Assembly: GCA_034506395.1 (NCBI GenBank)
Contig: JAPDPQ010000002.1
Location: forward strand, 52,255 to 116,254
DNA length: 64,000 bases
From: Candidatus Zhuqueibacterota bacterium
GTDB lineage: Bacteria; Zhuqueibacterota; Zhuqueibacteria; Thermofontimicrobiales; Thermofontimicrobiaceae
Reading direction: 5' to 3'
Position 1 is the stretch's first letter. Every line of letters starts with the position of its first letter. The position numbers and the translations under genes were made by a program. Under the pieces are notes generated by a model, which was not told the DNA's origin, ran no database searches, and saw only the letters and a list, made by a program, of their open reading frames with translations. This document shows positions 6,380-23,829 of the stretch, one piece after another.

Positions 6380-9037
6380 ATGAAACGCTGCAGAGTAATT
6401 GGCATTGCTTTGAGCTGGTTGCTCAGTTGGTCGATGATGATATTCGGTCAAACGGAACCAATTGATTCAAATTCTGGGAGCATGATCCCAGTAGCATCAT
6501 TTTATGGTCGGGAATACATTGAGCGGATCGGCTACGCGGTGGCCGGAGCTGGAGATGTTAATGGGGATGGATTTGACGACTTTTTGATTGGCACCTTTCA
6601 CAACGCTGTGATGGGAGCCGACGCAGGGGCCGTTTATCTATTTTTGGGTCACCGCTATCTCCGCTGGACAATGAACGATACCGTCAATCATGCAGATGCT
6701 CGGCTGTTGGGCCAGCAAGCATATGATGCGGCTGGGTATTCGGTGGCTTGTAACGGCGACCTGAACGGCGATGGTCTGGACGATATGATCATCGGCGCTC
6801 CGGCTGGCAATGATAAGGTGCCTTATATGCCTGGACGGGTTTATATTTTGTTCGGCCGCAAAAAAGCCAATTGGGGCTATTATTTCCGCTTGTATGACAA
6901 TTGCGATGCGATTTATGAGGGCGAAGGCAATCAAGACCTCGCTGGTTTATCAGTAGCCTATATTGGCGATTTGAATGGTGATGGATATGATGATTTTTTG
7001 GTTGGTGCACCATTTCGTAATGGGAAGTATGTGGATCAGGGCCAGGTGTACCTCATTTTAGGGCGAGCCACGCCATGGCTTAAGACGGATTATTTAGCCT
7101 ACGCAGATGCGACATTTATTTACGAGGTAAGCAGTGCTAAAACTGGTTACTCAGTGGCGGGAATTGGAGATGTGAATGTCGATGGGATCCCAGATTTCGC
7201 AATAGGCGCTTATGGAGCCAGTCACGTGTTTGTCCTGTATGGACGACCCAAAGTCAATTGGGGGAAAAATTTTGATCTGGAAAATGCAGATGTGATAATC
7301 TATGGCGAGAACCGATGGTCGAAGGAAGGTGTGGGTTGGCGGGTAGCGGGGGGCAGTGATGTCAATGGCGATGGCATCTCCGATCTGTTGATCTCGGCCA
7401 CGCAAAATAGCGATCACGGAACTCGCTCTGGAATGGTCTATGTGTTGTTCGGCAAGAGAGGCGGCTGGGGCGTCTCGGAGATCTCTCTCAATAACGCCGA
7501 TGCCTCATATTATGGTGAGCAACCAGGCGACCAAGCCGGATGGGGATTGGCGATGGCCGGGGATGTCAATGGTGATGGTTTCGGCGATATCCTGGTTGGG
7601 ACTTATAAAGATGAAAATGGCCCAGTTAATGGTAAAGCCTATCTCATCAAAGGAAAAGCCTCTGGCTGGCAAAGAGATGTTTCCTTGACTACTGTGCCAG
7701 ATTTTTGTGAGCGAAGTCCTGAGGGCATTGGGTATGCGGTCGCTTCGGCCGGCGATTTTGACGCGGATGGCCTCGCCGATTATGTGATTAGCGCGCCGTT
7801 CAACAGCGACATACAAAAATGGAACGGCAAGGTATATCTGTTCACCAGCCAGGAGGTGCCCTATGAAATTTCAGGACAGGTGACCTATCATCGAACTGGC
7901 CAACCCATTCCTCAAGTGATGGTGAAATTGGATACGCTTGCTGTTGCCGCTGATACCACCGATGGACTGGGTCGCTATCAAATTTTAGTGCGCGGCAAGC
8001 ACGATCACACCGTTGCCATGGAAAAACTGATCAGAAGCGATCTGGGATCAGCCGTCAGCGCTTATGATGCGGCGTTGATCGCTCAAATGGCAGTGAAATT
8101 GTCTGTGCCCGATACCATCCATCGCGAAGCTGGTGATGTGAATAACGATGGCAAGGTCAGTATGTACGATGCCGCAAACACACTCCGCTGCGCCGTGCAA
8201 TTACCAGCATTGCCGAACACTTATGCTGGCCAATGGGTTTTTACCCCTTCCAGCATGACTTATGATTCCGTTACCCACCATTATTCAAACCAGAACTACG
8301 TTGGTTTTGTTAGAGGTGATGTGGACGGCAACTGGCGGGCGCCTGGCTCTGGGTTGGCAAAAAGCGAAGATGGTAGCACGGGGCTGCAATTTCAGGCTGT
8401 TGTCAATGGCGATGAGCTTCGGTTGCCCATAGAATTAAATTTCGATTTCTCCATGATCTCTTTCGATCTCCACATCAGCTATCCCCAAGCATTCTTAAAA
8501 TTGAAGGCGGTTGAACCTTCAACAAAGATCGCTAATTTTCAATTAGCTGTCAATTCTGAACTCAGCGGACAGGTGAAGGCGGCTGGCTTTGGCCTACAAT
8601 CTATTGTTGCCCATGGGCCTATTTTGGTTTTCGTTTTTGAAACGATCAAGCCGATCGATAACGCTTGCCAGCTTCAGATCGATCATTTTGCAGTGAATCA
8701 GCAATGTTTCGCTGCGAGGGTAAAGTTGGCGGGTGCTGAACCCTTATCTAATTTGCCGCAACGGTTCGAGCTCCTTCAAAATTATCCCAATCCCTTCAAT
8801 GGCACAACTCTCATACGATTTGCGGTTCCGCATACTGGTAAGATTCGATTGACCATTTATAATTTGCTTGGAGAAGAAGTGAATACACTGATCGATGAGA
8901 CGGTAGCGCCAGGCAAATATCATGTGAATTGGGATGGAAAAAATAGAAATGGAGCCGCTGTTGCCTCAGGAATTTACATTGCGAGAATGGACCATCCATC
9001 AGGATCGGAGCAGATTAAGCTCATCTATATGCAATAG
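6380..9037 (+). CDS. FG-GAP-repeat (integrin-alpha-like beta-propeller) T9SS cargo protein, paralog A. It has a signal peptide, about 7 FG-GAP blades, a CarboxypepD_reg-like domain, a dockerin-like double EF-hand, an internal cohesin-like module and a T9SS CTD.
   Basis: GGGGAG lies 4 nt upstream of the ATG at 6380, and the signal peptide is 'MKRCRVIGIALSWLLSWSMMIFGQ'. FG-GAP Ca-loop motifs recur ('GDVNGDGFDDFLIG', 'GDLNGDGLDDMIIGAP', 'GDVNVDGIPDFAIGA'…). The dockerin-like segment is 'SAYDAALIAQMAVKLS…GDVNNDGKVSMYDAANTLRCAVQL' (~8050-8215). The cohesin-like module 'LRLPIELNFDFSMISFDLHISYP…GQVKAAGFG…ILVFVFETIKPID' lies at ~8390-8740. The CTD is 'FELLQNYPNPFNGTTLIRFAVP…IYNLLGEEV'. Confidence 0.85.
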   Translation: MKRCRVIGIALSWLLSWSMMIFGQTEPIDSNSGSMIPVASFYGREYIERIGYAVAGAGDVNGDGFDDFLIGTFHNAVMGADAGAVYLFLGHRYLRWTMNDTVNHADARLLGQQAYDAAGYSVACNGDLNGDGLDDMIIGAPAGNDKVPYMPGRVYILFGRKKANWGYYFRLYDNCDAIYEGEGNQDLAGLSVAYIGDLNGDGYDDFLVGAPFRNGKYVDQGQVYLILGRATPWLKTDYLAYADATFIYEVSSAKTGYSVAGIGDVNVDGIPDFAIGAYGASHVFVLYGRPKVNWGKNFDLENADVIIYGENRWSKEGVGWRVAGGSDVNGDGISDLLISATQNSDHGTRSGMVYVLFGKRGGWGVSEISLNNADASYYGEQPGDQAGWGLAMAGDVNGDGFGDILVGTYKDENGPVNGKAYLIKGKASGWQRDVSLTTVPDFCERSPEGIGYAVASAGDFDADGLADYVISAPFNSDIQKWNGKVYLFTSQEVPYEISGQVTYHRTGQPIPQVMVKLDTLAVAADTTDGLGRYQILVRGKHDHTVAMEKLIRSDLGSAVSAYDAALIAQMAVKLSVPDTIHREAGDVNNDGKVSMYDAANTLRCAVQLPALPNTYAGQWVFTPSSMTYDSVTHHYSNQNYVGFVRGDVDGNWRAPGSGLAKSEDGSTGLQFQAVVNGDELRLPIELNFDFSMISFDLHISYPQAFLKLKAVEPSTKIANFQLAVNSELSGQVKAAGFGLQSIVAHGPILVFVFETIKPIDNACQLQIDHFAVNQQCFAARVKLAGAEPLSNLPQRFELLQNYPNPFNGTTLIRFAVPHTGKIRLTIYNLLGEEVNTLIDETVAPGKYHVNWDGKNRNGAAVASGIYIARMDHPSGSEQIKLIYMQ

Positions 9038-9049
9038 GGGGAGTAATTC

Positions 9050-11722
9050 ATGACTGGAAGAATTTGGTTTGAGAAGTATGTTTTGATACTTTTGATGAAC
9101 TTGATGCTGATCAAAGGCGTTGCGGGACAAAATGGAGATCAAGCGGTTTTGGGCCAGATTTATCCAGACGCAACCTTCATTTGCAAGAACGCCAACGAGC
9201 GGTGCGGCTATTCTATGGCCGGGGCTGGGGATGTCAATGGCGACGGGTTCAGCGATTTTATGGTAGCCGCATATCACAACTATCTTCACGGTTGGAATTC
9301 TGGTGGGGTGTATTTGATCACCGGCGCATTGAATCAGCGATGGGGAATGAATGTCGATATCGAAGCCGCAGCAACAGCAGTATTTCGAGGCAGCCAAGAT
9401 TACGATATGGTCGGTTATTGTGTGGCGGGCAAAGGCGATTTCAATGGCGATGGACTGAGCGATATGATTATCGGTGCGCCAGGCACCTGGGATCGAATGC
9501 CCGAAACTCCAGGATGGGCTTATCTGGTGTTTGGGAAAAAGGAAATGGATTGGGGCAAAGATTATCAATTGGAGGCCTCCGCCGATGTGAAAATCGTGGG
9601 CGAAAAGCCCCTGGATCAATTTGGCTATGCGGTCTCTTTCGTCGGTGACATCAATCATGATGGGTATGACGACATCATCTGTGGCGCACCTTATCGCAAT
9701 CAATATCAAAAATGGGATGGCAAGGCGTATTTAATTTTGGGTGCTGCCCAGGGTTGGGATGGCAATCATCTGGTGGCGAAAAAAGCCGTGGCATCTTTCG
9801 TGTTTCCAGCCGAACAAGCGTTGACCGGCTATTCGGTCGCTGGAGTGGGCGATGTGAATCAGGATGGCACACCAGATTTTGTGATTGGCGTGCCTGGAGC
9901 TAATGTCGCCTGTTTAATATTGGGTAGACCAGCCGTCGATTGGGGGCTCGATTTTGATCTGCGGAATGCTGACTCTAAATTCTGGGGCGAGGTTGATGGC
10001 GATTACGCCGGCTCATGGATCAGCGCAGCGAATGATGTTAACCATGATGGCTATCCAGATTTCATGATTTCAGCTATTCAGGCCTATTTCAATGGGGGCA
10101 AAATTTATGTGGTCTTAGGTAGAAAACGCTGGACTGAGAGCGATATCTCTTTGAAGACTGCCGACGCTTCGTTCCGAGGAGAGGACGTGGAGACGCATAC
10201 CGGCTTCTGTACCTCAGGATTGAAAGATTATGATGGTGATGGCTATGACGACCTATTAATCGGTGCTCGCTACCTTAATAGCATTGATATTCCACATGCC
10301 GGCAAAGTCTATGTGATCAAAGGTCGACCTGGTGGTTGGCAGCATGACGCCGATCTGGAAAATAGCGATTATTACTTCTGGGGGCCAGATTCCATTACGT
10401 GTGCTGGCTGGCAGGTGGCGGATGTGGGCGATGTGAATGGCGATCATGGTCATGATTTTATCGCCTCAGGACCATTTAACAGCACTGGTGCTCATTGGGG
10501 CGGAAAAATATTTTTCTTTTATGGCAAAGATATCGCTTATCATATCTCTGGAACAATTGTTTATTACTCCCATTTCCAGCCAATCTCTGATGCGAAATTG
10601 ACGGTCACTGGCAATGTGGCTGATAGCACTTTGAGCGACCGAATGGGCCGTTATTCTCTTTGGCTCAAGCCGAATGGGAATTATCGAATCGCCGCTACAA
10701 AAGCGGGTCCGATTGGGAATCAAGACTATGCGATTTCAGCCTATGACGCGGCAAGGGTAGCCAGCCATGCCATCGGAATAGATACGCTTTCAAATTGGTC
10801 CCGAAAAGCAGCCGATGTCGATCAAAATGGCGTAATTCAGATGTTCGATGCGGCGCAGATCGCCCGCTATGCTGTCGACCTTCCTGCACTGGAATCTTCT
10901 CATGTGGGCGAATTCCGTTTCGATCCAGAGAGCCGATGGTACTCCAATTTGGGACAATCCTTTCTGCAAGAAAATTTTATTGGGCTGCTATTGGGCGATG
11001 TAGATGGCAATTGGCAAACTCATACCACTATTGCAGCCAAAAATACTGGGAATTCGATATTGCCAAGTAGCATTGTCACGTTATTCAATTCGCGACCTTC
11101 GATCCCATTGACGATCAATGATTTCGCCAATGCCAGATCTGTCGATATCCAGTTCGAGTTTGATCCAACGCAACTGCAATTTCTTGAGCTTCACCGAACT
11201 GAGGTCACAAAAAATTTCTCATTGGTACTGAACGCTAATGTGCCAGGCTTGATAAAAATCGCTCTCTTTAGTGCGACTCCCGTGCACTTTCAGGGAGAGA
11301 TCGCTCGATTGCAATTTAAGCTTGTGAATTTGAATAACACTAATTTAGCCCGCCTGAAAATGACTGTAATTCGCGTCAATGATGTCCGATTCCCGCCTGA
11401 GGAGACATTAATTTTCATGGTTGACAAGAATGGCCTAAACATCGCAACAGAAGCAACATTGATCAGTCAGCCCAATCCATTTAATCCAAGCACCACTCTC
11501 ATCTTTAAAAATAATATGGCTGGTAAGGGGAAGCTGATGATCTATGATGTATTGGGAAAAGCGGTGCGCTGTTTTGATCTGGGATTTTTGCTGCCGGGCG
11601 TACATCAAGTGTTCTGGGACGGGGCGGACGACAGTGGCAACGAGCTATCCAGTGGCGTTTATTTCGCCAGATTTCAGTGCGATGCCAAGGAGAGCATAAT
11701 TAAATTGATCAAGCTAAAATAA
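9050..11722 (+). CDS. FG-GAP-repeat T9SS cargo protein, paralog B, with the same architecture as paralog A.
   Basis: It starts 12 nt after the stop of paralog A and follows GGGGGAG. The FG-GAP motifs are 'GDVNGDGFSDFMVAA', 'GDFNGDGLSDMIIGAP' and 'GDINHDGYDDIICGAP'. The dockerin-like segment is 'ISAYDAARVASHAIG…ADVDQNGVIQMFDAAQIARYAVDLP' (~10735-10890). The cohesin-like module 'SVDIQFEFDPTQLQFLELHRTEV…GLIKIALFS…GEIARLQFKLVNLN' lies at ~11060-11440. The CTD is 'ISQPNPFNPSTTLIF…IYDVLGKAV…SGVYFARF'. Confidence 0.85.
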   Translation: MTGRIWFEKYVLILLMNLMLIKGVAGQNGDQAVLGQIYPDATFICKNANERCGYSMAGAGDVNGDGFSDFMVAAYHNYLHGWNSGGVYLITGALNQRWGMNVDIEAAATAVFRGSQDYDMVGYCVAGKGDFNGDGLSDMIIGAPGTWDRMPETPGWAYLVFGKKEMDWGKDYQLEASADVKIVGEKPLDQFGYAVSFVGDINHDGYDDIICGAPYRNQYQKWDGKAYLILGAAQGWDGNHLVAKKAVASFVFPAEQALTGYSVAGVGDVNQDGTPDFVIGVPGANVACLILGRPAVDWGLDFDLRNADSKFWGEVDGDYAGSWISAANDVNHDGYPDFMISAIQAYFNGGKIYVVLGRKRWTESDISLKTADASFRGEDVETHTGFCTSGLKDYDGDGYDDLLIGARYLNSIDIPHAGKVYVIKGRPGGWQHDADLENSDYYFWGPDSITCAGWQVADVGDVNGDHGHDFIASGPFNSTGAHWGGKIFFFYGKDIAYHISGTIVYYSHFQPISDAKLTVTGNVADSTLSDRMGRYSLWLKPNGNYRIAATKAGPIGNQDYAISAYDAARVASHAIGIDTLSNWSRKAADVDQNGVIQMFDAAQIARYAVDLPALESSHVGEFRFDPESRWYSNLGQSFLQENFIGLLLGDVDGNWQTHTTIAAKNTGNSILPSSIVTLFNSRPSIPLTINDFANARSVDIQFEFDPTQLQFLELHRTEVTKNFSLVLNANVPGLIKIALFSATPVHFQGEIARLQFKLVNLNNTNLARLKMTVIRVNDVRFPPEETLIFMVDKNGLNIATEATLISQPNPFNPSTTLIFKNNMAGKGKLMIYDVLGKAVRCFDLGFLLPGVHQVFWDGADDSGNELSSGVYFARFQCDAKESIIKLIKLK

Positions 11723-11734
11723 CGAGGAGCAATC

Positions 11735-12523
11735 ATGCAAAGGTGGAAGCTTGGGCGTATTTTCGTGCTCAGCGCCATCATCATTGCATGGGGGATCAAT
11801 GATGGATTCGCGCAAGTCAAAGTTACAATCGCCGATGTTGCAGCGACGCCTAAAAGCACGGCCAGCGTGGCAATGTTGGTGAGCGATTTATCTAATTATG
11901 AGATCATTTCCTATCAATTTGAAATTTTGTATGATTCGCTGGTTGCTCGGGCGAAAGGGGTGGCAGTTGAAGGCACGATAACCGCGCCATGGGGCAGCCC
12001 CGCGGTCAATCTGGATAGCGCTGGCAGAATGCTCGTTGGCAATTTCGGGACGCGGCCGCTTTCGCCAGGCGATACACTGCTTAAACTCATCTTTGCGGTC
12101 GTCGGATTACCGGGCGATACGAGTACGATCATCCTAAAGGATTTTCAGTTCAACAATGGCAATCCCATGGCCCTATCGAAAAACGGGCGACTAAAAGTTC
12201 TATCGCCCAGCGGTGTGGCCCAGCCTTCGCCGATCGTACCGCGAAAAGCAATCTATCTCTCTAACTCGCCAGAGCCATTTTGCGACCGCACCACGATTCA
12301 AATGATTCAGCCTTCTCCAGGAGCAATCGATATTGAGATCTACAATGTACTTGGACAGCGGATCAAACGATTAGGAAACTTTGATTCAAATCGATCCTTG
12401 TTGGAGATCGACTGGGACGCGACCGACCAGCAAGGTGGACCAGTGCCGGCTGGCATCTATTTCTGTATGGTGAGACAATTCAATCGGATTCTGGCGGTTG
12501 ATCGGATGATATTCATCAAGTGA
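11735..12523 (+). CDS. Small secreted protein (262 aa) consisting of a signal peptide, a single cohesin-like domain and a T9SS CTD.
   Basis: GAGGAG lies 5 nt upstream of the ATG. The domain 'VKVTIADVAATPKSTASVAMLVSDLSNYEIISYQFEILYDSLVARAKGVAVEGTITAPWGSPAVNLDSAGRMLVGNFGTRPLSPGDTLLKLIFAVVGLPGDTSTIILKDFQFNNGNPMALSKNGRLKV' fits the cohesin beta-sandwich pattern (V.V.I..V.A..G..V.VPV….FxL.YD..VL…G….W…N…G.I..G…GxGxL..I.F.V.G..G..S.L….FN.G.P…NG.V). The CTD is 'PEPFCDRTTIQM…IEIYNVLGQRI…AGIYFCMV'. The gene is tightly coupled to both neighbours. Confidence 0.75.
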   Translation: MQRWKLGRIFVLSAIIIAWGINDGFAQVKVTIADVAATPKSTASVAMLVSDLSNYEIISYQFEILYDSLVARAKGVAVEGTITAPWGSPAVNLDSAGRMLVGNFGTRPLSPGDTLLKLIFAVVGLPGDTSTIILKDFQFNNGNPMALSKNGRLKVLSPSGVAQPSPIVPRKAIYLSNSPEPFCDRTTIQMIQPSPGAIDIEIYNVLGQRIKRLGNFDSNRSLLEIDWDATDQQGGPVPAGIYFCMVRQFNRILAVDRMIFIK

Positions 12524-12534
12524 TTGAGGAGATT

Positions 12535-15311: not shown

Positions 15312-17987
15312 ATGTGGCACTGCGATGTTAGCAGAAGATTTGCAATCACCATTTTCGGGATGCAGTTGGTATTAGGAATCACAAATGGATATGGCCAAAC
15401 TGAAATTGCAAGTCCAATGACCAAGTTGACGCCTTCTGCGGCATTTTTGGGTGAATTTTATTATGAACGGGTGGGATATTACATGGAAAATGCCGGGGAT
15501 GTCAACGGAGATGGGTGCGAGGACTTCCTGATCGGTACGTTTCATAATCGGGAAAATGGATATGATGCAGGAGCGGCTTACCTGATCCTGGGTAATAGAA
15601 ATAATATCTGGGGGATGAAGCAGCGATTGAGGACCGCAGACGCTCGTTTTTTGGGGAAACATGAGTATGATGCGTTCGGATATTATGTTTCAGGCAATGG
15701 CGATGCGAATGGCGATGGCTATGATGATTTTTTGATTGGCGCGCCGGCTGGTAATGAATTGGGAGGGCCCAACCCCGGGTATGCGTTTCTGTTTTTGGGA
15801 AAAGCGACAGCGGATTGGGGTTTCGATTGCGTGGCGCGGGATGCCGCTGATGCCTACTGGATGGGAAGCCATGCTTACGATCATGTGGGCCAGGCTGTTG
15901 CCATGCTCGGTGACATCAATGGTGATGGTTTTGATGATTTTCTCATCGGCGCGCCATTGAACGATGACGGTTCGGAAGAGAGCGGGAAGGCCTATTTATT
16001 TTTAGGCAAGGCCTCTGGTTGGCGACGCGGCGCTGATATTGAAGCTGCTGCAAATGCCAGTTTCATCTGTCAATATTATAAAGCGTGGGCTGGCTATACA
16101 GTTTCTTCCGCTGGGGACATGAATGGGGATGGAATGGCTGATTTTTTAATTGGTGCGCCGTTTCTCGATCGATGGGGAGGCCGAGTTTACCTGTTTTTTG
16201 GCCGAAAAAAGGCCGATTGGGGTGCCAATTTCGATCTTGACCAAGCGGATGTAATTTTCCAAGGTGAAAACTACGGCGATAAAGCTGGCTGGAGCTTGGC
16301 TTCCGCTGGGGACGTCAATGGGGATGGCCTGAGCGATATCCTGATTGGAGCCTACGGAAATGATCACCAAGCAGCCCAAGCCGGAAAGGTTTATTTGATT
16401 CTGGGCCGAAAATCGAATTGGCAGCGGATCGTTCAACTGAACGAGGCAGAGGCCTCCTGGTATGGGGAAAGAATAGATGATCAAGCTGGCTGGAGTGCGG
16501 CAAGCGTCCCAGATCTAAATTATGATGGATGCGATGAAATATTGATCGGCGCGTGGCATAATGATCAAATCGGAGACAACTGCGGCAAAGCTTATTTGAT
16601 CTATGGTAAGCCGAGCGGTTGGCAAACGGATCAAAGTTTGGCTGGAGTGACAGATTATTTTGTTGGTGAATATGATGGCGATTACGCTGGCTATTGTGTG
16701 ACTGGCAACGATGCCAATGGCGATGGGCTGGGAGACATCTGGATTTCTGCAGCCTATAATAGCGATAGCCAGGAGCATGCGGGAAAGGTGTATTTGTTTT
16801 TAAGCGAACGCGATCGTTACGACATCAGTGGGCAAATCCGTTATTATAGCAACGGTGAACCAGTACCAGGGGTACAAATCAATATTTTGGGAGGCACCCG
16901 AAGCTGGCTCGTAAGTGATACCAATGGACTGTTTAGCCAGATATTGCCCCACCACATAGATTATTATTTCGTCCCATGCAAAGCATCTTACAGCGATTTG
17001 AATAGTGAGACCATTATCGCCTATGATGCTGCATTGACGCTGCAAGTTGCTGTCGAAAAATTGCCTTTGGATAGTTTGCAATGGCTGGCTGCCAATGCCG
17101 ATCAAGACAGCTTCATCACCGCGTATGATGCAGCATTGATCGCGCGATACGTCGTTGGCTATCGAGATTCGAACTCGGCGGTTGGAAAATGGGTCTTTTC
17201 CCCGACACAACGCACCATTCACGATCTTGCCCAGGAACACCATCGATTAGATTTTTCCGCCATTGTGGTTGGCAATGTGCATGGCGGTTGGCAGCCATTC
17301 ATGGGGGACTCCCTGCCGCGAACTTTGGCGAGCCTCCCATTGCCCCAAGCACAGCGCCAGGGCAAACGGGTAATCATCCCGTTCGAGATTGAACAGCCGA
17401 TGGAGTTGTCTTCGCTAGAAATTCAATTAGCCTTGCCATCCGATCGGTTTTCCGTAGTAGATGTTCAGCTTGGTTCTATGTTAAGTCGTTTTCAATGGAT
17501 TTGCAATCAACAAAAAAGCCAAATCAAATTAGTGCTATATTCTGCTCATCAAACCACAGCAATCGGTGAGCTGGTCAGTTTGGTACTTGAACCGGACAAC
17601 GATAGCCCTGATTTCGATCATGTTGAATTGATAAAGTATCAAATCAATGACTTCCCTTCGGTTCGAGGCATGATTGAGCTTAGATCCCCGATTGAGCCCA
17701 TGTCACCAAAAAATTTCGCTCTGCACCAGAACTACCCTAATCCATTCAATTCTGAAACAGCGATTCGACTATCTGTCTCTCGGAATTGTAAGATTCATTT
17801 GGCCATCTATAATTTGCGGGGCGATTTGGTGCGGCTACTGGAAGATAAGTCCCTAGCGCCAGGCAATTACCAGTTTGTCTGGAATGGAAGGGATCAAAAT
17901 CAGATTCCACTTGCTTCTGGAGTCTATCTATGCCGGGCAATTGCAGGACAAGAACTACAGACGGTGAAACTCATAATGATTAAATAG
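15312..17987 (+). CDS. FG-GAP-repeat T9SS cargo protein, paralog C (FG-GAP blades, dockerin-like segment, internal cohesin-like module, T9SS CTD).
   Basis: GGGGGAG lies 7 nt upstream of the ATG at 15312, and the signal peptide is 'MWHCDVSRRFAITIFGMQLVLGITNGYGQ'. The FG-GAP motifs are 'GDVNGDGCEDFLIG', 'GDANGDGYDDFLIGAP', 'GDINGDGFDDFLIGAP' and 'GDMNGDGMADFLIGAP'. The dockerin-like segment is 'IAYDAALTLQVAVEKLP…NADQDSFITAYDAALIARYVVGY' (~17010-17165). The cohesin-like module lies at ~17370-17690. The CTD is 'FALHQNYPNPFNSETAIRLSV…IYNLRGDLV…SGVYLCRA'. Confidence 0.85.
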   Translation: MWHCDVSRRFAITIFGMQLVLGITNGYGQTEIASPMTKLTPSAAFLGEFYYERVGYYMENAGDVNGDGCEDFLIGTFHNRENGYDAGAAYLILGNRNNIWGMKQRLRTADARFLGKHEYDAFGYYVSGNGDANGDGYDDFLIGAPAGNELGGPNPGYAFLFLGKATADWGFDCVARDAADAYWMGSHAYDHVGQAVAMLGDINGDGFDDFLIGAPLNDDGSEESGKAYLFLGKASGWRRGADIEAAANASFICQYYKAWAGYTVSSAGDMNGDGMADFLIGAPFLDRWGGRVYLFFGRKKADWGANFDLDQADVIFQGENYGDKAGWSLASAGDVNGDGLSDILIGAYGNDHQAAQAGKVYLILGRKSNWQRIVQLNEAEASWYGERIDDQAGWSAASVPDLNYDGCDEILIGAWHNDQIGDNCGKAYLIYGKPSGWQTDQSLAGVTDYFVGEYDGDYAGYCVTGNDANGDGLGDIWISAAYNSDSQEHAGKVYLFLSERDRYDISGQIRYYSNGEPVPGVQINILGGTRSWLVSDTNGLFSQILPHHIDYYFVPCKASYSDLNSETIIAYDAALTLQVAVEKLPLDSLQWLAANADQDSFITAYDAALIARYVVGYRDSNSAVGKWVFSPTQRTIHDLAQEHHRLDFSAIVVGNVHGGWQPFMGDSLPRTLASLPLPQAQRQGKRVIIPFEIEQPMELSSLEIQLALPSDRFSVVDVQLGSMLSRFQWICNQQKSQIKLVLYSAHQTTAIGELVSLVLEPDNDSPDFDHVELIKYQINDFPSVRGMIELRSPIEPMSPKNFALHQNYPNPFNSETAIRLSVSRNCKIHLAIYNLRGDLVRLLEDKSLAPGNYQFVWNGRDQNQIPLASGVYLCRAIAGQELQTVKLIMIK

Positions 17988-18096
17988 CCAGATGTCGCCG
18001 GGCAAAAGAAGATATTTCCTGAATTCTATGGGAAAACACTTAAAAGTATGATATCTGGAAAAATTTTGGTTCGTAACTTAACTTGAGGATCGCATC

Positions 18097-20850
18097 ATGT
18101 ATGGCAGCAGAATTCTTATGATACTGTTATTTTGGGCTACCATAGCAGCGCCGCTATTGGCTGAAGTAACAGTGACTATTCCTGACACAACGGCGTATCC
18201 AGAAGATACTTTATTTGTTCCAATCAAATTATCCGACGTGACTGGTCTGGAAGTCTATTCCTATGAGTTTCGGATGAAATTTGATCCCAAAGTTGTTCAA
18301 TTCATCCGCGTAGACTCGACCAAAACCCTGACTGAGACGTGGGGCAAAACCTGGCTCAATACCGAATCGGTCGGGGAAATCAGGGTGGGAAATTACAACG
18401 TGACGCCCCTCCAAAATGCTGGAGTGCTGATTTATCTTGGTTTTAAGATGTTGGGCAAAATTGATGATTCGAGCCAATTTGTCGCCCAGGATTTTACCTT
18501 TAATGCGGGTCAACCAACAGTCGAACTCAAAAATGGGTCGGTGAAAATCCTGCATCCTCCTATCAGCGTTCGATTTCGGTCCAATGTGGCAGTGACCATC
18601 AAAATTCTGCTCGACAGCCATGAAAAGAAGCTGCCCTTCGATACGAGCTGGGCATATGGCTCAAGTCATACGATCGGGACAATTTCTCCGCAGTACTTCT
18701 CTTCTGATACGCGTTATAGCTTTCAAAGCTGGAGCGATGGAAAAACAATGTCTCATACCGTTAGCCCAATTTCGGACACCACTTTTACGCTGTTCATGGA
18801 TGAGGAATTCTTGCTAACGCTCCAATCGAGATATGGGACTCCGACCGGGGGAGGCTGGTACCTCCGCGGCAAAAACGCGACCTTTTCTGTCGATTCGGTG
18901 GCGCAACAAACCGATAGCACCCGCTACGTCTTTGCTCAATGGTCAGGGGTCGGAGCGAGCAGCTATAGCGGAACGCAACGCACAGTCACGATTATCATGA
19001 ACAGCCCGGTAATAGAGAGCGCCCAATGGACTCAACAGTATTATTTAGCCATTCGATCGAATATTGGAACTCCGATTGGCCAAGGATGGCATAACCAGGG
19101 CGACGCGGTTACGATATCCATCGATTCTTTGGTTACGCCCATTGCTGGCACCCGCTATATTTTCAGTTCCTGGACAGGAATCGGATCTGGCAGTTACACC
19201 GGTGCTCAGCGGAAAGTATCGGTGACCATGCTCGCACCAATCGTTCAAAAAGCCAATTGGCAAACCGAGCATTACTTGAAAATCAAATCCTCACCAGAAC
19301 AGATCGTTCAGTTCAAACAATCTGGCTGGTATGCGAAGAACAGTCTGGTATCGACCGATAAAGCGTTAGAAAGTGTAAGTTCTCCAGGAATAATTTATCG
19401 TTTCAAGCAATGGAAACTGGATCAGAAAGAGCTACCTGGGAATCCAATTCAAGTCACCATGGATACGTCGCACATAGCGGAAGCAGTCTACCAAATTGAT
19501 AGCGTTTTGGTGAATATCACCACCTCCATTGGCACGGGCAGTTTCATTACCGTGGATGGCAATCGACATCCAGTGCCATATTGGGATTGGTGGCAATTTC
19601 AGTCGAGGCATCATATCGACATCGATTCCATTCAACTGGCAGCGAATCAGAAAACGCGATACGTATTCAAATCATGGAGTGATCGAGGGGCGCGAAATCA
19701 TACTGTAGTCGCAGATACGGGGTTTCAATTAATTGCTGCTCTGGCTAGTCAGCACTTGCTCCGGATTGATACTCATCCTCCAGGGCTCATTCAATTTGCC
19801 GAAAATGGCTGGTATGATCAGGGGAGTTCGGTCAACATCCCGGCGGTTCCTTTGCAGTTCGATATCGGTCAGGAGAAGTTGAATTTTAAAGGATGGTACC
19901 TGGATCGACATTGGATCGGCGGGGAGCTCCGTCAAATTTTAATGGATCGACCCCATTCAGCCATTGCAGCTTACAAAGAGCTCCTATCAGTTAAAGGAAA
20001 AATTTTGAATCGCCGCGGTCAAATAGTGCCAAACATCAAAGTAATACTTTCTGGGGCTGCAGACGATACGGTGATCGTTGCAGATGGTGAATATGCGTTC
20101 GAAATGCTTTCTGTGGGAGTTTATCAGATTGCGCCGCAATCTGCTGGTTTTTGTTTCGAACCACCTGCGCGATCCTATCTGCCTTTATCCGAAAGCCTCT
20201 TCGAACAAAATTTTATTGCTATCGATACCTTAAAACCCCAGGTCCAGCTCATTTATCCCAATGGAGGGGAACGGCTGGTGGCAGCCTCGACTGATACCAT
20301 CAAATGGCTGGCAGCCGACAATTTTGGGATCGATTCGATCCGCATAGATTTAAGCAGCGATCATGGGCAATCCTGGTTGAATATCATCAAATTCGATAGC
20401 TCAAAATTTTCAAGCTATGCCTGGACCATTCCGAATCTTTCCAGCGATCGTTGTCTCCTTCGCATCACGGTAAAAGATTTTGACACGAATGAGGCAGAAG
20501 ACCTCAGCGATGGGATGTTTACCATCACGCCTAAATCGGCAGTGAATGATGACGGGAGCCTTGTGATACCCACAACCTTTGCGGTACACCAAAATTATCC
20601 CAATCCATTCAACAATGCAACTCAAATTCGCTTCCAACTGCCTGTTGCAGCTCAGGTTCAGATCAAAATTTTTAACACGAAGGGTCAAATGGTTGCTACC
20701 ATAGTCGATCGAAATTTTGATGCTGGGTATCATCAAATTGATTGGAATGGGAGAGATCAATTTGGTCATGAGCTGTCATCGGGTATTTATTTCTATCAGA
20801 TCCAAGCTGGGGAACAGGTTGTGATGCGCAGAATGGTATTATTACGCTGA
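18097..20850 (+). CDS. Paralog of the 12535..14970 gene. It has an N-terminal cohesin-like domain, tandem Listeria/InlB-B-type repeats, a CarboxypepD_reg-like domain, a small Ig-like beta-sandwich and a T9SS CTD.
   Basis: GAGGAT lies upstream of the ATG, and the signal peptide is 'MYGSRILMILLFWATIAAPLLAEV'. The cohesin-like segment is 'VTVTIPDTTAYPEDTLFVPIKLSDVTGLEVYSYEFRMKFDPKVVQFIRV…GVLIYLGFKMLGKIDDSSQFVAQDFTFNAGQPTVELKNGSVKI'. The repeats contain 'G.GWY..G' and 'Y.F..WS'. The CTD is 'FAVHQNYPNPFNNATQIRFQLP…IFNTKGQMV…SGIYFYQIQA'. A rho-independent terminator follows. Confidence 0.8.
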   Translation: MYGSRILMILLFWATIAAPLLAEVTVTIPDTTAYPEDTLFVPIKLSDVTGLEVYSYEFRMKFDPKVVQFIRVDSTKTLTETWGKTWLNTESVGEIRVGNYNVTPLQNAGVLIYLGFKMLGKIDDSSQFVAQDFTFNAGQPTVELKNGSVKILHPPISVRFRSNVAVTIKILLDSHEKKLPFDTSWAYGSSHTIGTISPQYFSSDTRYSFQSWSDGKTMSHTVSPISDTTFTLFMDEEFLLTLQSRYGTPTGGGWYLRGKNATFSVDSVAQQTDSTRYVFAQWSGVGASSYSGTQRTVTIIMNSPVIESAQWTQQYYLAIRSNIGTPIGQGWHNQGDAVTISIDSLVTPIAGTRYIFSSWTGIGSGSYTGAQRKVSVTMLAPIVQKANWQTEHYLKIKSSPEQIVQFKQSGWYAKNSLVSTDKALESVSSPGIIYRFKQWKLDQKELPGNPIQVTMDTSHIAEAVYQIDSVLVNITTSIGTGSFITVDGNRHPVPYWDWWQFQSRHHIDIDSIQLAANQKTRYVFKSWSDRGARNHTVVADTGFQLIAALASQHLLRIDTHPPGLIQFAENGWYDQGSSVNIPAVPLQFDIGQEKLNFKGWYLDRHWIGGELRQILMDRPHSAIAAYKELLSVKGKILNRRGQIVPNIKVILSGAADDTVIVADGEYAFEMLSVGVYQIAPQSAGFCFEPPARSYLPLSESLFEQNFIAIDTLKPQVQLIYPNGGERLVAASTDTIKWLAADNFGIDSIRIDLSSDHGQSWLNIIKFDSSKFSSYAWTIPNLSSDRCLLRITVKDFDTNEAEDLSDGMFTITPKSAVNDDGSLVIPTTFAVHQNYPNPFNNATQIRFQLPVAAQVQIKIFNTKGQMVATIVDRNFDAGYHQIDWNGRDQFGHELSSGIYFYQIQAGEQVVMRRMVLLR

Positions 20851-20936
20851 GAGATGCCCTTAATTTTTGCTGAGCAATTGAATTGCAACTTTTGATTCCT
20901 ATAGCGCAACTGCATCGATTCGAGTGAATCGGCAAA

Positions 20937-20977
20937 GAGCCGCTCTATGTAAGATATGAGCGGCTTCTTTGTTTCTA
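20937..20977 (+). terminator. Rho-independent terminator after the 18097..20850 gene.
   Basis: The stem is 'AGAGCCGCTC'…'GAGCGGCT', with a ~12-nt loop, followed by 'TCTTTGTTTCT'. Confidence 0.5.
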
Positions 20978-21276
20978 TTCACCAAATATAAAAGGGATTG
21001 AACCGCCGATTCATTAGTGGCTGCTGTACCTCATAAAAATATCAAATATGGCAATTTTCTGCTTGCCTTTTAATGAAAAAATGCTATTTTCTAAATGAAA
21101 TCACTATCGATGTTACTGCTCCGAGAAATTGTATCCTTCTTGAAATTGTTTGGACCAACTGCTGTATCATCCAGTAACTGGGGATAAAAATAATCCCATG
21201 AATCCCAAAACGAAATATGGCAGCTTTATTAATCACCCCAACGCTGCCATTCAATTTTAACTGGGAGGGCCAATCC

Positions 21277-23829
21277 ATGAAAACTATCAAACACAAGCTA
21301 ATTGGACTCGGGTTAATGATATTTGTATGCGTTCGTGCAATGGCTCAGACGGTAGAGGTATCAATCCCCGACCTGTCGGACAGCGCTGGTGCTGTGGTCA
21401 AGGTGCCAATTATGGTGAACGATGTGACTGGGTTGGGCGTGCTTTCTTATATGTGTGCCCTGACATTTGACCAGCGAGTATTAGATGCGAGAGGATATAT
21501 CATTGCTGGTACACTTTCTGACGGCTGGGCCGCGTTTTTTGCCGATAGTTTAGGGAAAGCTCGGTTGGCGGCCGCAGGAACGAACGTAGCGGTTGGCAGC
21601 GGCGTGCTGGCCTATATTCAATTCGAGGTTGTTGGTGCCCCTGGGAGCAGGACCAATCTGGTTCTGACGGATTTCGTGTTTAATGAAGGATTTCCTCAGG
21701 CAACACTTCGCAACGGTTCATTCGAAGTGAGAGCCGTGAAAAACCGTCCGCCGAAGGCCGATGCCGGGGCTGATATTCTTGGGGTTCAGGCTGCCAGTTA
21801 CGTGAAATTGGATGGTTCAAAATCATCTGATCCAGATGGCGATTCTCTGCGCTATTATTGGAGCAGCGCCAATCCTGACGTCATTATTGACACCTCGCCA
21901 GAAAATCCAGTCGCTGGTTTCCGTCCCCTGGAGATCGGTGAATACAAATTTCATTTAAAGGTAAGTGATGGTCGTGAGGAGAGCGCGCCAGATAGTGTCG
22001 TTGTCTCTGTAACGATCGAAGCGCCAGCGCCATTGGGCTATCGATTTGTGGATAACTTCGCGCAGCTCTTGGGGGCGCAGGGTGTTGTTGTGGATCCTGA
22101 AGGCAAAATATGGTCCGGCTCATATTATACAAGCCCCAGCTCTTATGTCCGGGTCTGGAATTCAGATGGAACTGTTCCCGAATGGGCGCCAGTCAAATCT
22201 GGCCGCGTCGGGAATGATGTGGTGAGCACCATGGGTAATTGCTATGGTTTAGCCATCGACAAAGAAGGGAATGTCTATTACAGCAATGCCACCGAGCATG
22301 TTGTGCTGAAGTTCGACTATCAGACTGGTGCGCCTCTGGGCGGGATTCGATTGTCCAAAGGGAGTCCCACAATGGGAGTCGACCATAACGGTTACCTTTA
22401 TGTAGGGACCGTAGTCGGCGATACCGTATGGATTTATGATAAAGATTTTCATTTGATCAATCGGGTTTATGTGGAATATATCGGCCGGGAGGTGGAGGTC
22501 GCTCCCGATGGGAGCGTCATCTATGTGGGGCAGTTCGATGGCACCGTAAGACGATTTCAGGGCAGCCCGACGACTGGCTATCACCGCATCGAAGATCTTC
22601 CTGGACCATTTACAACTGCCGATGGGCCAGGGGTGACGAGCGATATCGGATTCGATATGCATGGTCGTCTTTGGGTGACCGAAGAACATACAACCTACCC
22701 TCAGCGCGATTTCATTCACATTTACAGCCCAGATCTCAAATTTCGCGAGAGCTTTACATATTCCGATGATCATCCCTGGGATCGGCCGCGCGGGGTGGGA
22801 TTCGATCATAATTTAGGAGATTCGCTGATCTATATTGTGGATTTTGAGGCCAAAAATCCGTTCATCCAGCGCTGGGCGATCCCTGGCACCGAGCTCCCCC
22901 CAATATTTCATACCATTCGACAAGTGGCTGAGGTGGATGATAATGGATTTCCATCTTTATCGAACAAAAACGTCAAGGTTCGCGGCATCGTGACCGTGGC
23001 TGGGGAATTCGGGCCCTCTGGGCCGTCGTACCTTCAAGACGCAGCCGACAGTGCTGGCGTCGCTATCTACGATGCACGATCAATTCTGCCAGATTCTGTG
23101 AAAATAGGCGATGAAATCATGGTGGTAGGTAAAGTTGGTTTCTACAATGGGCTCACCGAAATCGATCCTGTCAAAGATTTTCGCATCCTATCGTCTGGGC
23201 ATACCATCGTACCACGAAAAATCACTTGCGCCGATTTAGCTGAACGGGTTGGCGAGCGGTTTCAATCGCAATTGGTCATTATCGAACAGGTCCATACTAA
23301 TGTGACGGTTTTTCCCAGCAACCAGAATGTCACCATTAGCGATCGGACCGGATTCGCTGTCATGAGGATCGATAAAGACACCGATATTCCTGGGGCTGAG
23401 GTTCGGGCAGACTCGTTCAGTGTGGTGGGCGTGATCACGCAATACGATCCGCAATCTCCCTACTGGGGAGGATATCAAATTATGCCGCGCTCCCGGCGCG
23501 ATTTGGCCAAAGCGACGAATATTCAAATGCTCAGCGAACAATCTGTGCCGAAGCAATTCGCTCTGTATCAAAATTATCCCAATCCATTTAATGCCCAGAC
23601 GATGATCAAATATGATCTGCCAAAAGATTGTCGCGCGACTCTGGAAATATTCAACGTACTGGGACAAAAGGTGAGAACCCTGGTTGATGGCTACCAGAAA
23701 GCCGGGACGAAAAGCGCATATTGGGACGGCCAAAATCAGAATGGTCATCGCGCCGCTGCTGGAACATACATTTATCTGCTAAGTGCTGGAGATTTTCAGC
23801 GATCGAGACGAATGATTTTGCTTCCATGA
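21277..23829 (+). CDS. T9SS cargo protein with an N-terminal cohesin-like domain, a PKD/K319-like domain, an NHL/SGL-type beta-propeller region and a T9SS CTD.
   Basis: GGGAGGG lies 7 nt upstream of the ATG at 21277, and the signal peptide is 'MKTIKHKLIGLGLMIFVCVRAMAQT'. The cohesin-like segment is 'VEVSIPDLSDSAGAVVKVPIMVNDVTGLGVLSYMCALTFDQRVLDARG…GVLAYIQFEVVGAPGSRTNLVLTDFVFNEGFPQATLRNGSFEV'. 'KADAGADILGVQAASYVKLDGSKSSDPDGDSLRYYWSS' is PKD-like. The repeated 'G.AID.EGNVYY', 'G…VGTVVGDTVWIYD', 'G.VIYVGQFDG' are propeller-like. The CTD is 'FALYQNYPNPFNAQTMIKYDLP…IFNVLGQKV…GTYIYLL'. Confidence 0.75.
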   Translation: MKTIKHKLIGLGLMIFVCVRAMAQTVEVSIPDLSDSAGAVVKVPIMVNDVTGLGVLSYMCALTFDQRVLDARGYIIAGTLSDGWAAFFADSLGKARLAAAGTNVAVGSGVLAYIQFEVVGAPGSRTNLVLTDFVFNEGFPQATLRNGSFEVRAVKNRPPKADAGADILGVQAASYVKLDGSKSSDPDGDSLRYYWSSANPDVIIDTSPENPVAGFRPLEIGEYKFHLKVSDGREESAPDSVVVSVTIEAPAPLGYRFVDNFAQLLGAQGVVVDPEGKIWSGSYYTSPSSYVRVWNSDGTVPEWAPVKSGRVGNDVVSTMGNCYGLAIDKEGNVYYSNATEHVVLKFDYQTGAPLGGIRLSKGSPTMGVDHNGYLYVGTVVGDTVWIYDKDFHLINRVYVEYIGREVEVAPDGSVIYVGQFDGTVRRFQGSPTTGYHRIEDLPGPFTTADGPGVTSDIGFDMHGRLWVTEEHTTYPQRDFIHIYSPDLKFRESFTYSDDHPWDRPRGVGFDHNLGDSLIYIVDFEAKNPFIQRWAIPGTELPPIFHTIRQVAEVDDNGFPSLSNKNVKVRGIVTVAGEFGPSGPSYLQDAADSAGVAIYDARSILPDSVKIGDEIMVVGKVGFYNGLTEIDPVKDFRILSSGHTIVPRKITCADLAERVGERFQSQLVIIEQVHTNVTVFPSNQNVTISDRTGFAVMRIDKDTDIPGAEVRADSFSVVGVITQYDPQSPYWGGYQIMPRSRRDLAKATNIQMLSEQSVPKQFALYQNYPNPFNAQTMIKYDLPKDCRATLEIFNVLGQKVRTLVDGYQKAGTKSAYWDGQNQNGHRAAAGTYIYLLSAGDFQRSRRMILLP

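Follow-up and report, generated by a model that had tools for sequence, protein, structure and literature searches.

Cohesin–dockerin pairs are among the strongest known protein connectors and have been much reused in biotechnology, and to our knowledge their roles outside cellulosomes are largely unknown. In the non-cellulosomal literature, a cohesin and a dockerin are at times found within one polypeptide. Cohesin and dockerin modules outside cellulosomes were reportedly treated by Peer et al. in 2009.

For Cloacimonadota, a multi-cohesin scaffoldin bearing a type IX secretion system (T9SS) C-terminal sorting domain (CTD) has been proposed in silico together with dockerin enzymes (Williams et al., 2021, PMC8542988). 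The scaffoldin of ‘Ca. Stygibacter’ (3755 aa) carries tandem cohesins and CBM2/CBM3, and the C-terminal dockerins lie on GH18, GH57 and peptidases (PMC8542988). The original prediction had held that a CTD-anchored cohesin–dockerin set was undescribed, a claim that this proposal leaves unsupported. Like the ‘Ca. Stygibacter’ system, the locus studied here combines a CTD-bearing cohesin protein with secreted dockerin proteins and comes from a phylum within the FCB superphylum that has not been cultivated; unlike that system, it has single N-terminal cohesins, non-catalytic propeller partners, a cassette holding dockerin and cohesin in cis, and a tight conserved cluster.

Compared with the type I pairs of clostridial and ruminococcal cellulosomes (1OHZ, 6KGC, 4UYP), the locus lacks enzymes, a CBM and a multi-cohesin scaffoldin. 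Its predicted anchor is the T9SS CTD, in place of SLH domains or sortase; its dockerin has a degenerate first calcium loop, lies within an Ig domain and is always followed by a cohesin of its own; and it comes from a diderm host belonging to the FCB group. Of the cellulosome analogy drawn originally, only the pairing principle carries over. A cellulosome was rejected as an identification: Pfam revealed no catalytic domain or CBM in the locus, and no protein there has more than one free cohesin. The locus resembles the non-cellulosomal modules of Archaeoglobus fulgidus (2XDH) and of Clostridium perfringens GH84/GH33 (2JH2, 2VO8) in standing outside plant cell-wall degradation, and 2XDH, 2VO8 and 2JH2 were among the best structural or sequence matches.

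Layout of the cluster and its sorting domains

In the window (the whole 64-kb stretch of DNA that was analyzed, from an uncultivated bacterium of candidate division KSB1), seven consecutive genes on the + strand occupy positions 6380–23829, as predicted. A (6380–9037), B (9050–11722) and C (15312–17987) encode three paralogous proteins of ~890 aa, each with a signal peptide, an FG-GAP propeller, an Ig domain interrupted by a dockerin (Ig⟨dockerin⟩), an internal cohesin and a CTD. The other four begin with a signal peptide and a cohesin and end in a CTD; between these, c3 (11735–12523, 262 aa) has a flexible linker, c4 (12535–14970) has six InlB-B-like repeats and CarboxypepD_reg, c6 (18097–20850) has six InlB-B repeats, CarboxypepD_reg and a Big_7-like domain, and c7 (21277–23829) has PKD, a weak beta-propeller-like region and an ExeM/NucH-like segment.

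The gaps A-B, B-c3 and c3-c4 measure 12, 12 and 11 nt, and GGAG lies 7–8 nt 5′ of the ATG that follows each of them; these short gaps with GGAG before each start constitute operon-like spacing. The tight coupling claimed earlier is present in the 11–12 nt gaps, but the ATGA overlap is absent: c4 starts at 12535, and it could overlap c3 only from an alternative GTG at 12520. The terminator expected after c7 is matched by an intrinsic-terminator-like hairpin at 23841–23869 (+ strand; 11-bp stem, 6 GC pairs, T-rich tail), which closes the cluster.

A T9SS type-A sorting domain was present in all seven proteins, as originally proposed, with TIGR04183 scores of 24.0–42.9 bits against the NCBIfam cutoff of 23 and always inside the last ~85 residues: A, 8783–9034 (30.1 bits); B, 11471–11719 (24.0 bits); c3, 12269–12520 (24.3 bits); c4, 14719–14967 (41.0 bits); C, 17733–17984 (26.0 bits); c6, 20596–20847 (42.9 bits); and c7, 23575–23826 (32.6 bits), all on the + strand. 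With signal peptides called by eye from the hydrophobic N-termini, each of the seven has the two ends of a T9SS type-A cargo, a signal peptide and a CTD at the extreme C-terminus. By analogy with Porphyromonas biology, the CTD would lead to surface attachment rather than release. No T9SS machinery (PorU/PorV/SprA and others) was found in the 64-kb window.

Cohesins and the dockerin cassette

The claim that four proteins carry a cohesin directly after the signal peptide was borne out by PF00963, a PDB profile search and a structural model. The modules of c4 (12595–12996, 46.9 bits), c6 (18160–18558, 45.3 bits) and c7 (21346–21735, 31.2 bits) pass the PF00963 gathering score of 24.1 bits, and that of c3 (11810–12208, 18.2 bits; all four on the + strand) falls below it. 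The c3 module is 29–36% identical to those of c4, c6 and c7, and its AF2 model (pLDDT 80.5; pTM 0.53, with two domains and a flexible linker) resembles type I cohesins in Foldseek (TMt 0.74–0.78). When the four modules and their orthologues were searched as a profile against the PDB, all 32 matches were cohesins (best E 2.2e-8). The modules agree with the nine-stranded jelly-roll fold of solved cohesins. Orthologues of c3 and of B carry PF00963, and the c3 homologues are 257–264 aa long in all 13 cases among the matches listed, an identical sequence included. Mean identity in the N-terminal cohesin alignment was 0.37.

Beyond their cohesins, c4 and c6 are full-length paralogues (E 1e-132); the repeat motif is present six times in c4, and c6 matches PF18998 (29.5 bits). 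c7 matches PF22352 (41.1 bits), and its residues 607–696 match NF033681, resembling the N-terminal part of ExeM/NucH nucleases. The earlier “NHL” label of c7 is not sustained: the Pfam search returned no NHL match, only weak SGL/propeller-like matches below cutoff (SGL, 19.2 bits).

A, B and C proved to be FG-GAP proteins, as expected, with PF01839 scoring 7 repeats in A (E 2.5e-45), 6 in B (9.3e-37) and 7 in C (3.4e-40). From these repeats, in line with the approximately seven of the family, each is predicted to form a seven-bladed calcium-type propeller. They resemble bacterial integrin-alpha-like FG-GAP propellers in their seven repeats and DxNxDGxxD calcium motifs, but are fused to a cohesin–dockerin cassette and a T9SS CTD. 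Protein B is 100% identical to a KSB1 MAG protein at NCBI, where it is named ‘dockerin type I domain-containing protein’.

In all three, the dockerin is an insertion within a transthyretin-like (CarboxypepD_reg) Ig domain on the + strand. The Ig domain of A spans 7862–8344 with its insert at 8036–8197 and the canonical loop DVNNDGKVSMYD, its in-frame translation having been checked; that of B spans 10538–11029 (insert 10709–10885, canonical loop DVDQNGVIQMFD), and that of C spans 16818–17297 (dockerin 16995–17168, loop NADQDSFITAYD). PF00404 scored 26.8 bits in B and 22.9 bits in A, which equals the Pfam gathering score, and gave no match in C at E<0.1. The C cassette aligns across the dockerin with those of B (E 7e-26) and A (E 2e-25), and the A dockerin matches the family dockerin HMM at E 5e-40. 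The family profile matched the solved dockerins 4uyp_B (2.5e-6), 9qf9 (4.6e-5), 1ohz_B (5e-4) and 8ajy_B (0.019).

Among 105 family members, a canonical calcium loop was found in none at the first position and in 87 at the second, and both dockerin helices are kept (AF2 H70–80 and H104–114) with a linking helix. The family therefore departs from the type I pattern of two 12-residue EF-hand-type loops plus helices, and the A/B/C dockerin is an atypical, single-loop one. What had been described as a double EF-hand dockerin is thus a real dockerin by PF00404 and the solved-structure matches, with its first loop degenerate in 105 of 105 sequences. The ‘truncated’ group-2 dockerins of R. flavefaciens likewise have one canonical calcium-coordinating loop and still bind cohesin (Duarte et al., 2025, PMC12270676; PDB 8AJY). 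In those dockerins truncation has left a single repeat, whereas here both helices remain (YDAAL…/…YDAA.IARYAV) and decay is confined to the first loop.

The internal cohesins lie between the Ig⟨dockerin⟩ and the CTD, at 8351–8779 in A (divergent; family HMM E 5e-34), 11036–11449 in B and 17325–17729 in C (within the cassette that aligns to A and B), all on the + strand. PF00963 detected only that of B, below threshold (20.2 bits), with no match in A or C. In hhalign against the N-terminal family, the internal modules gave a probability of 99.2% (E 1.5e-19), and the N-terminal cohesin HMM also finds the A module (E 8e-10), results that uphold the call of an internal cohesin in each. Within the family, the dockerin had a mean pairwise identity of 0.45 and the internal cohesin one of only 0.21, below that of the N-terminal cohesin. 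AF2 gave a pTM of 0.90 for the three-domain piece of B, compared with 0.53 for the two domains of c3, indicating that the Ig⟨dockerin⟩–cohesin cassette is rigid in the predicted structure. Separate sets of cohesin-bearing and dockerin-bearing partners, as first envisaged, are not supported, because each dockerin shares such a cassette with a cohesin of its own.

Conservation of the locus and occurrence of the cassette

The gene order is repeated at seven other fetched loci, at identities down to 36% in candidate division KSB1 and at 42% in Zhuqueibacterota; the cluster is conserved in both. Genes for N-terminal cohesins lie directly 3′ of FG-GAP cassette genes at 8/8 distinct loci (the window, L001, L002, L003/L008, L004, L005, L006 and L007), which had been collected by way of the FG-GAP protein or cassette and without using the cohesin genes. 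At L009, L010 and L012, where the cassette accompanies other passenger domains, no N-terminal-cohesin gene was found nearby.

Upstream, the + strand at 57–4298 codes for the last 1413 aa of a giant Big_1/invasin-like surface protein (Pfam Big_1 x7, E 2e-49) with a T9SS CTD (TIGR04183 35.1 bits), whose gene begins 5′ of the window. Its orthologues of ~2860 aa have an N-terminal SGNH/GDSL lipase and fn3, with CBM_4_9 in L001, and hold the same position in L001–L003; in L004 a related giant GDSL/Big_1 protein lies farther upstream. The gene for the giant protein is a conserved first member of the cluster. Between it and the FG-GAP genes, a B12-binding radical SAM enzyme (4409–5974, + strand; Pfam Radical_SAM 8e-26, B12-binding 1e-20) keeps its position in L001, L002 and L003.

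A search with the cassette returned 813 cluster representatives at E≤1e-30 and 11,499 at E≤1e-3, with passengers that include propellers, peptidases, a GH43-like domain and lipases, and with the CTD present or absent. In KSB1 relatives the passengers include GH43-like and GATase-like domains and an SGNH lipase, and in Acidobacteriota M12B and M36 peptidases. The Ig⟨dockerin⟩–cohesin cassette is therefore a widespread generic module that extends beyond this locus, to thousands of secreted proteins in several phyla.

From these proteins we defined, outside curated families, a cohesin–Ig⟨dockerin⟩–cohesin unit: a dockerin-interrupted transthyretin-like Ig followed within ~15 aa by a cohesin, to which another cohesin may be added that ends ~60 aa before the dockerin. 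A, B and C have the Ig⟨dockerin⟩–cohesin portion and lack the upstream cohesin, whose closest counterparts are the N-terminal cohesins of c3, c4, c6 and c7. Among 140 of the best representatives, 72 had the order dockerin cassette–cohesin–CTD and 37 were exactly cohesin–dockerin–cohesin, with further variants containing the latter. Only a short gap of almost constant length separates the dockerin from the cohesin that follows (median 15 aa, 151 instances), and the upstream cohesin, with few exceptions, stops 58–76 aa short of the dockerin match, a distance close to the length of the N-terminal half of the Ig. Some single proteins, such as P0140 and P0141, contain tandem (dockerin–cohesin)x2–3 arrays. 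A literature search turned up no account of a fixed cohesin–transthyretin-like⟨dockerin⟩–cohesin arrangement, of a version of it split within an operon or of its link to the T9SS CTD.

Two class HMMs were made from the fused proteins, one with 63 upstream and one with 63 downstream cohesins. The N-terminal cohesins of c3, c4, c6 and c7 scored better as upstream modules (+8 to +29 bits), and the internal ones of A, B and C as downstream modules (+5.5 to +20 bits). This positional match is 7/7, with modest margins and with paralogous modules that are not independent trials, and the upstream class may merely lie nearer the general cohesin consensus.

A proposed split assembly unit and its alternatives

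Given the 7/7 match to the fused unit, the locus looks like a split form of this widespread three-part unit with the first cohesin supplied in trans. In this reading, to which we assign a probability of about 0.45, the KSB1/Zhuqueibacterota cluster distributes the unit over non-catalytic T9SS surface proteins. A, B and C would each present their propeller on a rigid C-terminal stalk, made up of a transthyretin-like Ig with the dockerin in one loop, then the divergent cohesin and the CTD. The partners would expose a cohesin at the mature N-terminus, followed by nothing in c3, by the InlB-B repeats in c4 and c6, or by PKD and the propeller-like region in c7, and then by the CTD. The N-terminal cohesin of c3, c4, c6 or c7 would dock on the cassette of A, B or C in trans. 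Heteromeric complexes of propeller and stalk would result, or else a network extending laterally over the outer membrane, and these would serve adhesion or surface architecture rather than polysaccharide degradation. Assembly by cohesin–dockerin contacts is plausible, and synteny and the fused proteins give it new, indirect support; the single-loop dockerins of R. flavefaciens are a functional precedent. Counting against the split unit, the cassettes of L009, L010 and L012 lack a nearby N-terminal-cohesin gene, the window shows no T9SS machinery, and every partner has its own CTD, so that the need for extra tethering is not obvious.

The pTM of 0.90 is equally compatible with a dockerin held in cis by its own cohesin, an occupancy that would deprive the N-terminal cohesins of their partner. 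The cassette would then be a rigid spacer or pedestal joining passenger to CTD, the N-terminal cohesins would be beta-sandwich modules for another ligand (glycan or protein), and the locus would encode independent adhesins. The nearly fixed gap fits this explanation, as do the many unrelated passengers, also in phyla without a CTD, and the cassette proteins that have no N-terminal-cohesin neighbours. It leaves unexplained the 8/8 synteny and the many proteins in which a cohesin of N-terminal type is fused ahead of the dockerin at constant spacing, and the dockerin is conserved far better than its supposed cis partner (0.45 vs 0.21); we regard it as somewhat unlikely. The short fixed linker and high pTM, which favour a closed intramolecular arrangement, also weigh against a quite improbable alternative: since dockerin and cohesin occur together in every cassette, domain swapping could link A, B and C head to tail into homo- or hetero-polymers, with cohesin-only proteins capping the chain-end dockerin to give an S-layer-like or fibrillar coat. 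The tandem arrays, the ratio of seven cohesins to three dockerins in the locus and the surface direction of all components would suit such a polymer.

Cellulosome-like scaffolding would make the four N-terminal-cohesin proteins CTD-anchored mini-scaffoldins able to recruit whatever cargo in the genome bears a cassette or dockerin, enzymes encoded elsewhere included, as in the Cloacimonadota proposal. That in silico precedent (PMC8542988) and the cassette-borne enzyme domains of KSB1 relatives and Acidobacteriota speak for this view. It is nevertheless improbable: the locus has neither catalytic domain nor CBM and one free cohesin per protein, the 64-kb window holds no further dockerin or cohesin, enzyme-bearing cassette proteins possess a CTD and a cohesin of their own, and the genes conserved beside those for the cohesins encode propellers rather than enzymes.

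A broader form of the split-unit reading is offered more tentatively. Cohesin–transthyretin-like⟨dockerin⟩–cohesin may be an unrecognised, widespread extracellular assembly unit, found in thousands of protein clusters from KSB1, Zhuqueibacterota, Calditrichota, Acidobacteriota and Chloroflexota, which the KSB1 cluster has split into a trans adhesin ‘snap’. One T9SS cargo, through its free N-terminal cohesin, would non-covalently complete the unit of a second cargo, so that integrin-like propellers could be paired with different stalk or binding proteins at the cell surface. The result would be combinatorial surface adhesins built on a cellulosome connector and unrelated to polysaccharide degradation.

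The locus offers a clean, conserved and testable case, with seven surface-directed proteins, three dockerins and seven cohesins, free of enzymes. If the cassette is only a cis-locked pedestal, it would caution against taking Pfam cohesin and dockerin matches in genomes of the FCB group and Acidobacteriota for ‘cellulosomes’. A correct split-unit reading would explain how T9SS cargo comes to form heteromeric surface complexes, define an assembly module that is both new and generic, and provide a source of new orthogonal connector pairs.

Domain composition of the cluster

Seven co-oriented ORFs lie on the + strand, at the coordinates of the original prediction: A (6380–9037), B (9050–11722), c3 (11735–12523), c4 (12535–14970), C (15312–17987), c6 (18097–20850) and c7 (21277–23829). 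The gaps are 12 nt between A and B, 12 nt between B and c3, and 11 nt between c3 and c4 (also 11 nt between the orthologues in L001, one of the related loci L001–L016 fetched from other genomes), and they are longer before C, c6 and c7 (341, 109 and 426 nt). GGAG is found 7–8 nt 5' of the ATG at each of the three short-gap starts (B, c3 and c4), which supports the c4 start at 12535; the ATGA-type overlap that had been proposed is thus absent and occurs only with an alternative GTG at 12520. The terminator expected after c7 was found as a strong terminator-like hairpin (23841–23869) directly 3' of the gene. An Rfam scan of the window returned no RNA family, and the sigma-70-type promoter matches in the window, which were not above shuffle expectation (39 versus 30.3 ± 6.1), were left unused. 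The remainder of the window consists of chromosomal housekeeping genes.

All seven proteins passed the T9SS type A sorting domain (CTD) model TIGR04183 of NCBIfam, with 24.0–42.9 bits against a cutoff of 23, a range that includes the upstream gene 57–4298, itself over the cutoff. The N-terminal modules of c4 (46.9), c6 (45.3) and c7 (31.2) exceeded the gathering score of Pfam Cohesin, and that of c3 (18.2) fell under it; the four take up about residues 1–140 of the mature proteins and share 29–36% mutual identity. An F-x-F-N-x-G-x-P strand is invariant in the cohesins. A profile search of PDB with these four modules and their orthologues gave 32 matches, all of them cohesins (best 4UMS, 2.2e-8). 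Profiles were required, as c4 searched against PDB as a single sequence had no match. An AF2 model of c3 (pLDDT 80.5) matched type I cohesins at TMt 0.74–0.78. The internal cohesin family of A, B and C was aligned to the N-terminal family by hhalign with a probability of 99.2% (E 1.5e-19), and the FG-GAP propellers of these three proteins have 6–7 repeats each (Pfam, E 1e-37 to 1e-45).

Pfam Dockerin_1 matched B (26.8) and A (22.9, equal to the cutoff) and gave no match in C, the C-terminal region of which aligns whole to those of B (E 7e-26) and A (E 2e-25). A profile of this family matched the PDB dockerins 4uyp_B (2.5e-6), R. bromii Amy16 (4.6e-5) and 1ohz_B (5e-4), and also the solved cohesins 2xdh (1.4e-4) and 3ul4 (2.3e-4). 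Thus, of the predicted dockerin-like double EF-hand, the dockerin assignment held and the pair of calcium loops did not: the EF-hand pattern is present in the second loop of 87 of 105 family members and in the first loop of none. Judged by its sequence, the dockerin is atypical, with YDAA and IARY as conserved helix residues; R. flavefaciens has single-loop dockerins that are known to work (PMC12270676). Sequence and fold both place the cohesin modules in their family, the dockerins are placed in theirs by sequence, and a chance or low-complexity match was ruled out by the concordance of fold, profile and synteny. Taken together, the sorting-domain, cohesin, propeller and dockerin checks confirm the domain observation itself.

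By eye, the predicted mature N-terminus begins with Gln in six of the seven proteins (6446-6451, 9125-9130, 11810-11815, 12598-12603, 15396-15401 and 21346-21351) and with Glu in c6, recalling the Bacteroidetes "Q-rule", in which pyroglutamate forms after signal peptidase I cleavage. In c7, residues 607-696 of the 870-aa ORF (23090-23364) match an N-terminal portion of the ExeM/NucH family of extracellular nucleases (positions 28–115 of the NF033681 profile), with the nuclease domain absent; from this similarity, the segment may serve to bind nucleic acid or a polymer.

Structure and spread of the cassette

The C-terminal cassettes extend over residues 495–791 in A, 497–804 in B and 503–800 in C. 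That of B (modeled residues 495–805) was predicted by AF2 with a 104-sequence alignment, yielding pLDDT 93.6 and pTM 0.90. The model runs through five strands, three helices and three strands into a beta-sandwich. Only ∼57 residues precede the helices, and the Pfam CarboxypepD_reg match spans only profile positions 2–58 of 82, so that the strands after the helices must complete the sandwich. In the model, the dockerin is therefore an insertion within an Ig-like domain, an arrangement written here as Ig⟨dockerin⟩–cohesin. The pTM of 0.90 over three modules, compared with 0.53 for the two-domain c3 model with its disordered linker, indicates that the predicted cassette is one rigid body.

Local HMMs and Pfam located the cassette in relatives on other passengers: InlB-B repeats (L010), a Caldithrix protein with PKD (L012), GH43-like and GATase-like domains in a KSB1 locus (L009), M12B and M36 peptidases without CTD in Acidobacteriota (L014), and an SGNH lipase of another KSB1 genome (L004:641-4222). 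This last protein, of 1193 aa, ends in Ig⟨dockerin⟩–cohesin–CTD and is encoded within a homologous cluster. An exhaustive HMM search with the A/B/C cassette profile against 1.84 billion cluster representatives gave 11,499 matches at E≤1e-3, 3,783 at E≤1e-10 and 813 at E≤1e-30. Lengths among the top 150 representatives run from 360 to 4,736 aa, and nearly all align over nearly the whole cassette. Among the 140 of these for which architecture strings were derived, 72 read dockerin–cohesin–CTD, 37 have exactly cohesin–dockerin–cohesin (further variants include it), and several have two to three dockerin–cohesin pairs in tandem. In some proteins (P0140, P0141 and P0145), three Ig⟨dockerin⟩–cohesin units in a row precede the CTD; being self-complementary by sequence, these arrays could be scaffold-like or polymerising proteins.

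The spacing is regular, with a median dockerin-to-cohesin gap of 15 aa and, with few exceptions, 58–76 aa from the end of the upstream cohesin to the dockerin match, about the length of the N-terminal half of the Ig domain. The fused form, cohesin–Ig⟨dockerin⟩–cohesin in one protein, accompanies WD40, PD40 and RCC1 propellers, PKD, BACON and an M23 peptidase; one such protein is named as Caldilineaceae (Chloroflexota), and some proteins of 466–493 aa, such as P0204, P0168 and P0277, consist of just this unit behind a signal peptide. As the cassette is generic and joins each dockerin to its own cohesin, the proposed division into cohesin partners and dockerin partners is too simple, and cohesin and dockerin matches of this type should not be taken as a cellulosome.

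In three MAGs of Pyrinomonadaceae (Acidobacteriota), a BACON–dockerin ORF and the next cohesin ORF are parted by TAG stops (L013:1383-1475, L015:10508-10600 and L016:1584-1687). The stops occupy three different codons, all inside some five codons of sequence, and L016 is also frameshifted; the cause could be pseudogenes that arose independently, noise in the assemblies or a form of recoding. These ORFs were set aside as evidence for a natural split, since stops that differ among the three MAGs may be pseudogenes or assembly noise.

Conservation of the locus

B and c3 are 100% identical to proteins of candidate division KSB1 annotated at NCBI as "dockerin type I domain-containing protein" and "T9SS type A sorting domain-containing protein", respectively. 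In gene order, a giant SGNH/fn3/Big_1 CTD protein comes first and a B12 radical SAM protein second; the FG-GAP cassette genes, two to four in number, are next, followed by a small cohesin gene and then by bigger N-terminal-cohesin genes. Within the fetched range, this order recurs in L001 (76% identity), L002 (61%), L003/L008 (Zhuqueibacterota, 42%), L005, L006 and L007, and it is kept in L004 (36%), where a different insert replaces the radical SAM gene. An N-terminal-cohesin gene stands directly 3' of the FG-GAP cassette genes in all eight distinct loci; because these were retrieved via the FG-GAP protein or its cassette, the co-occurrence does not arise by construction. An earlier alignment (A2) had yielded 600 FG-GAP pattern matches, none confirmed, and a narrower one (A4) was used instead.

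The ORF 57–4298 is the C-terminal 1413 aa of the giant protein, with seven Big_1 repeats, Big_9 and the CTD; orthologues of 2856–2883 aa add an N-terminal GDSL/SGNH lipase and fn3, and in L001 also CBM_4_9. The functional cluster therefore begins before 6380, where it had been placed. Between the giant protein and the FG-GAP genes, the B12-binding radical SAM gene is conserved (window 4409-5974; L001:5397-6863; L002:5835-7268; L003:5490-6938), and L004 has carbamoyltransferase, SxtJ and DUF5989 in that slot instead. This pattern hints at a modification reaction that goes with the surface cluster.

Predicted assembly in trans and its alternatives

In fused proteins, the N-terminal-cohesin HMM scores higher on the upstream cohesin in 44 of 58 cases, and the internal-cohesin HMM on the downstream cohesin in 122 of 151. 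For the reciprocal test, HMMs were built from the fused proteins, one from 63 upstream cohesins and one from 63 downstream cohesins. All seven modules fell into the corresponding class, with modest margins and among modules that are paralogues: c3, c4, c6 and c7 scored as upstream (+8 to +29 bits), and the internal modules of A, B and C as downstream (+5.5 to +20 bits). The locus thus resembles a fused three-part unit that was split: A, B and C would retain its Ig⟨dockerin⟩–cohesin part, with the first cohesin now at the mature N-terminus of the neighboring gene products. Fusion of this kind is a classical "Rosetta stone" argument that the parts are linked physically or functionally, though not proof; it is consistent with the lack of exceptions in the synteny and with much stronger conservation of the dockerin than of the internal cohesin (mean identity 0.45 versus 0.21).

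We tentatively predict assembly in trans between the N-terminal cohesins and the A/B/C cassettes, at a probability of roughly 0.45. A cis-locked pedestal, in which the cassette is closed on itself, accounts for the high pTM equally well and is unlikely, though to be kept in mind. Enzyme scaffolding is improbable, and head-to-tail polymerisation still more so. A true cellulosome was rejected, and with it the T9SS cellulosome implied by the original prediction: unlike a cellulosome, the cluster has no enzyme, CBM or multi-cohesin scaffoldin. Non-cellulosomal cohesins and dockerins have long been known. For MAGs of Cloacimonadota, a cohesin scaffoldin anchored by a CTD, together with enzymes that bear dockerins, was proposed earlier (PMC8542988). 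On both counts the novelty claimed for the architecture was overstated. In the searchable literature, we found no description of a dockerin inserted in an Ig domain, of cohesin–Ig⟨dockerin⟩–cohesin as a fixed unit, or of an operon that encodes this unit in split form together with FG-GAP propellers.

The cluster is real, well defined and conserved. It offers a compact 4 × 3 cohesin–cassette binding matrix that is directly testable, and it points to a widespread, uncharacterised assembly module.
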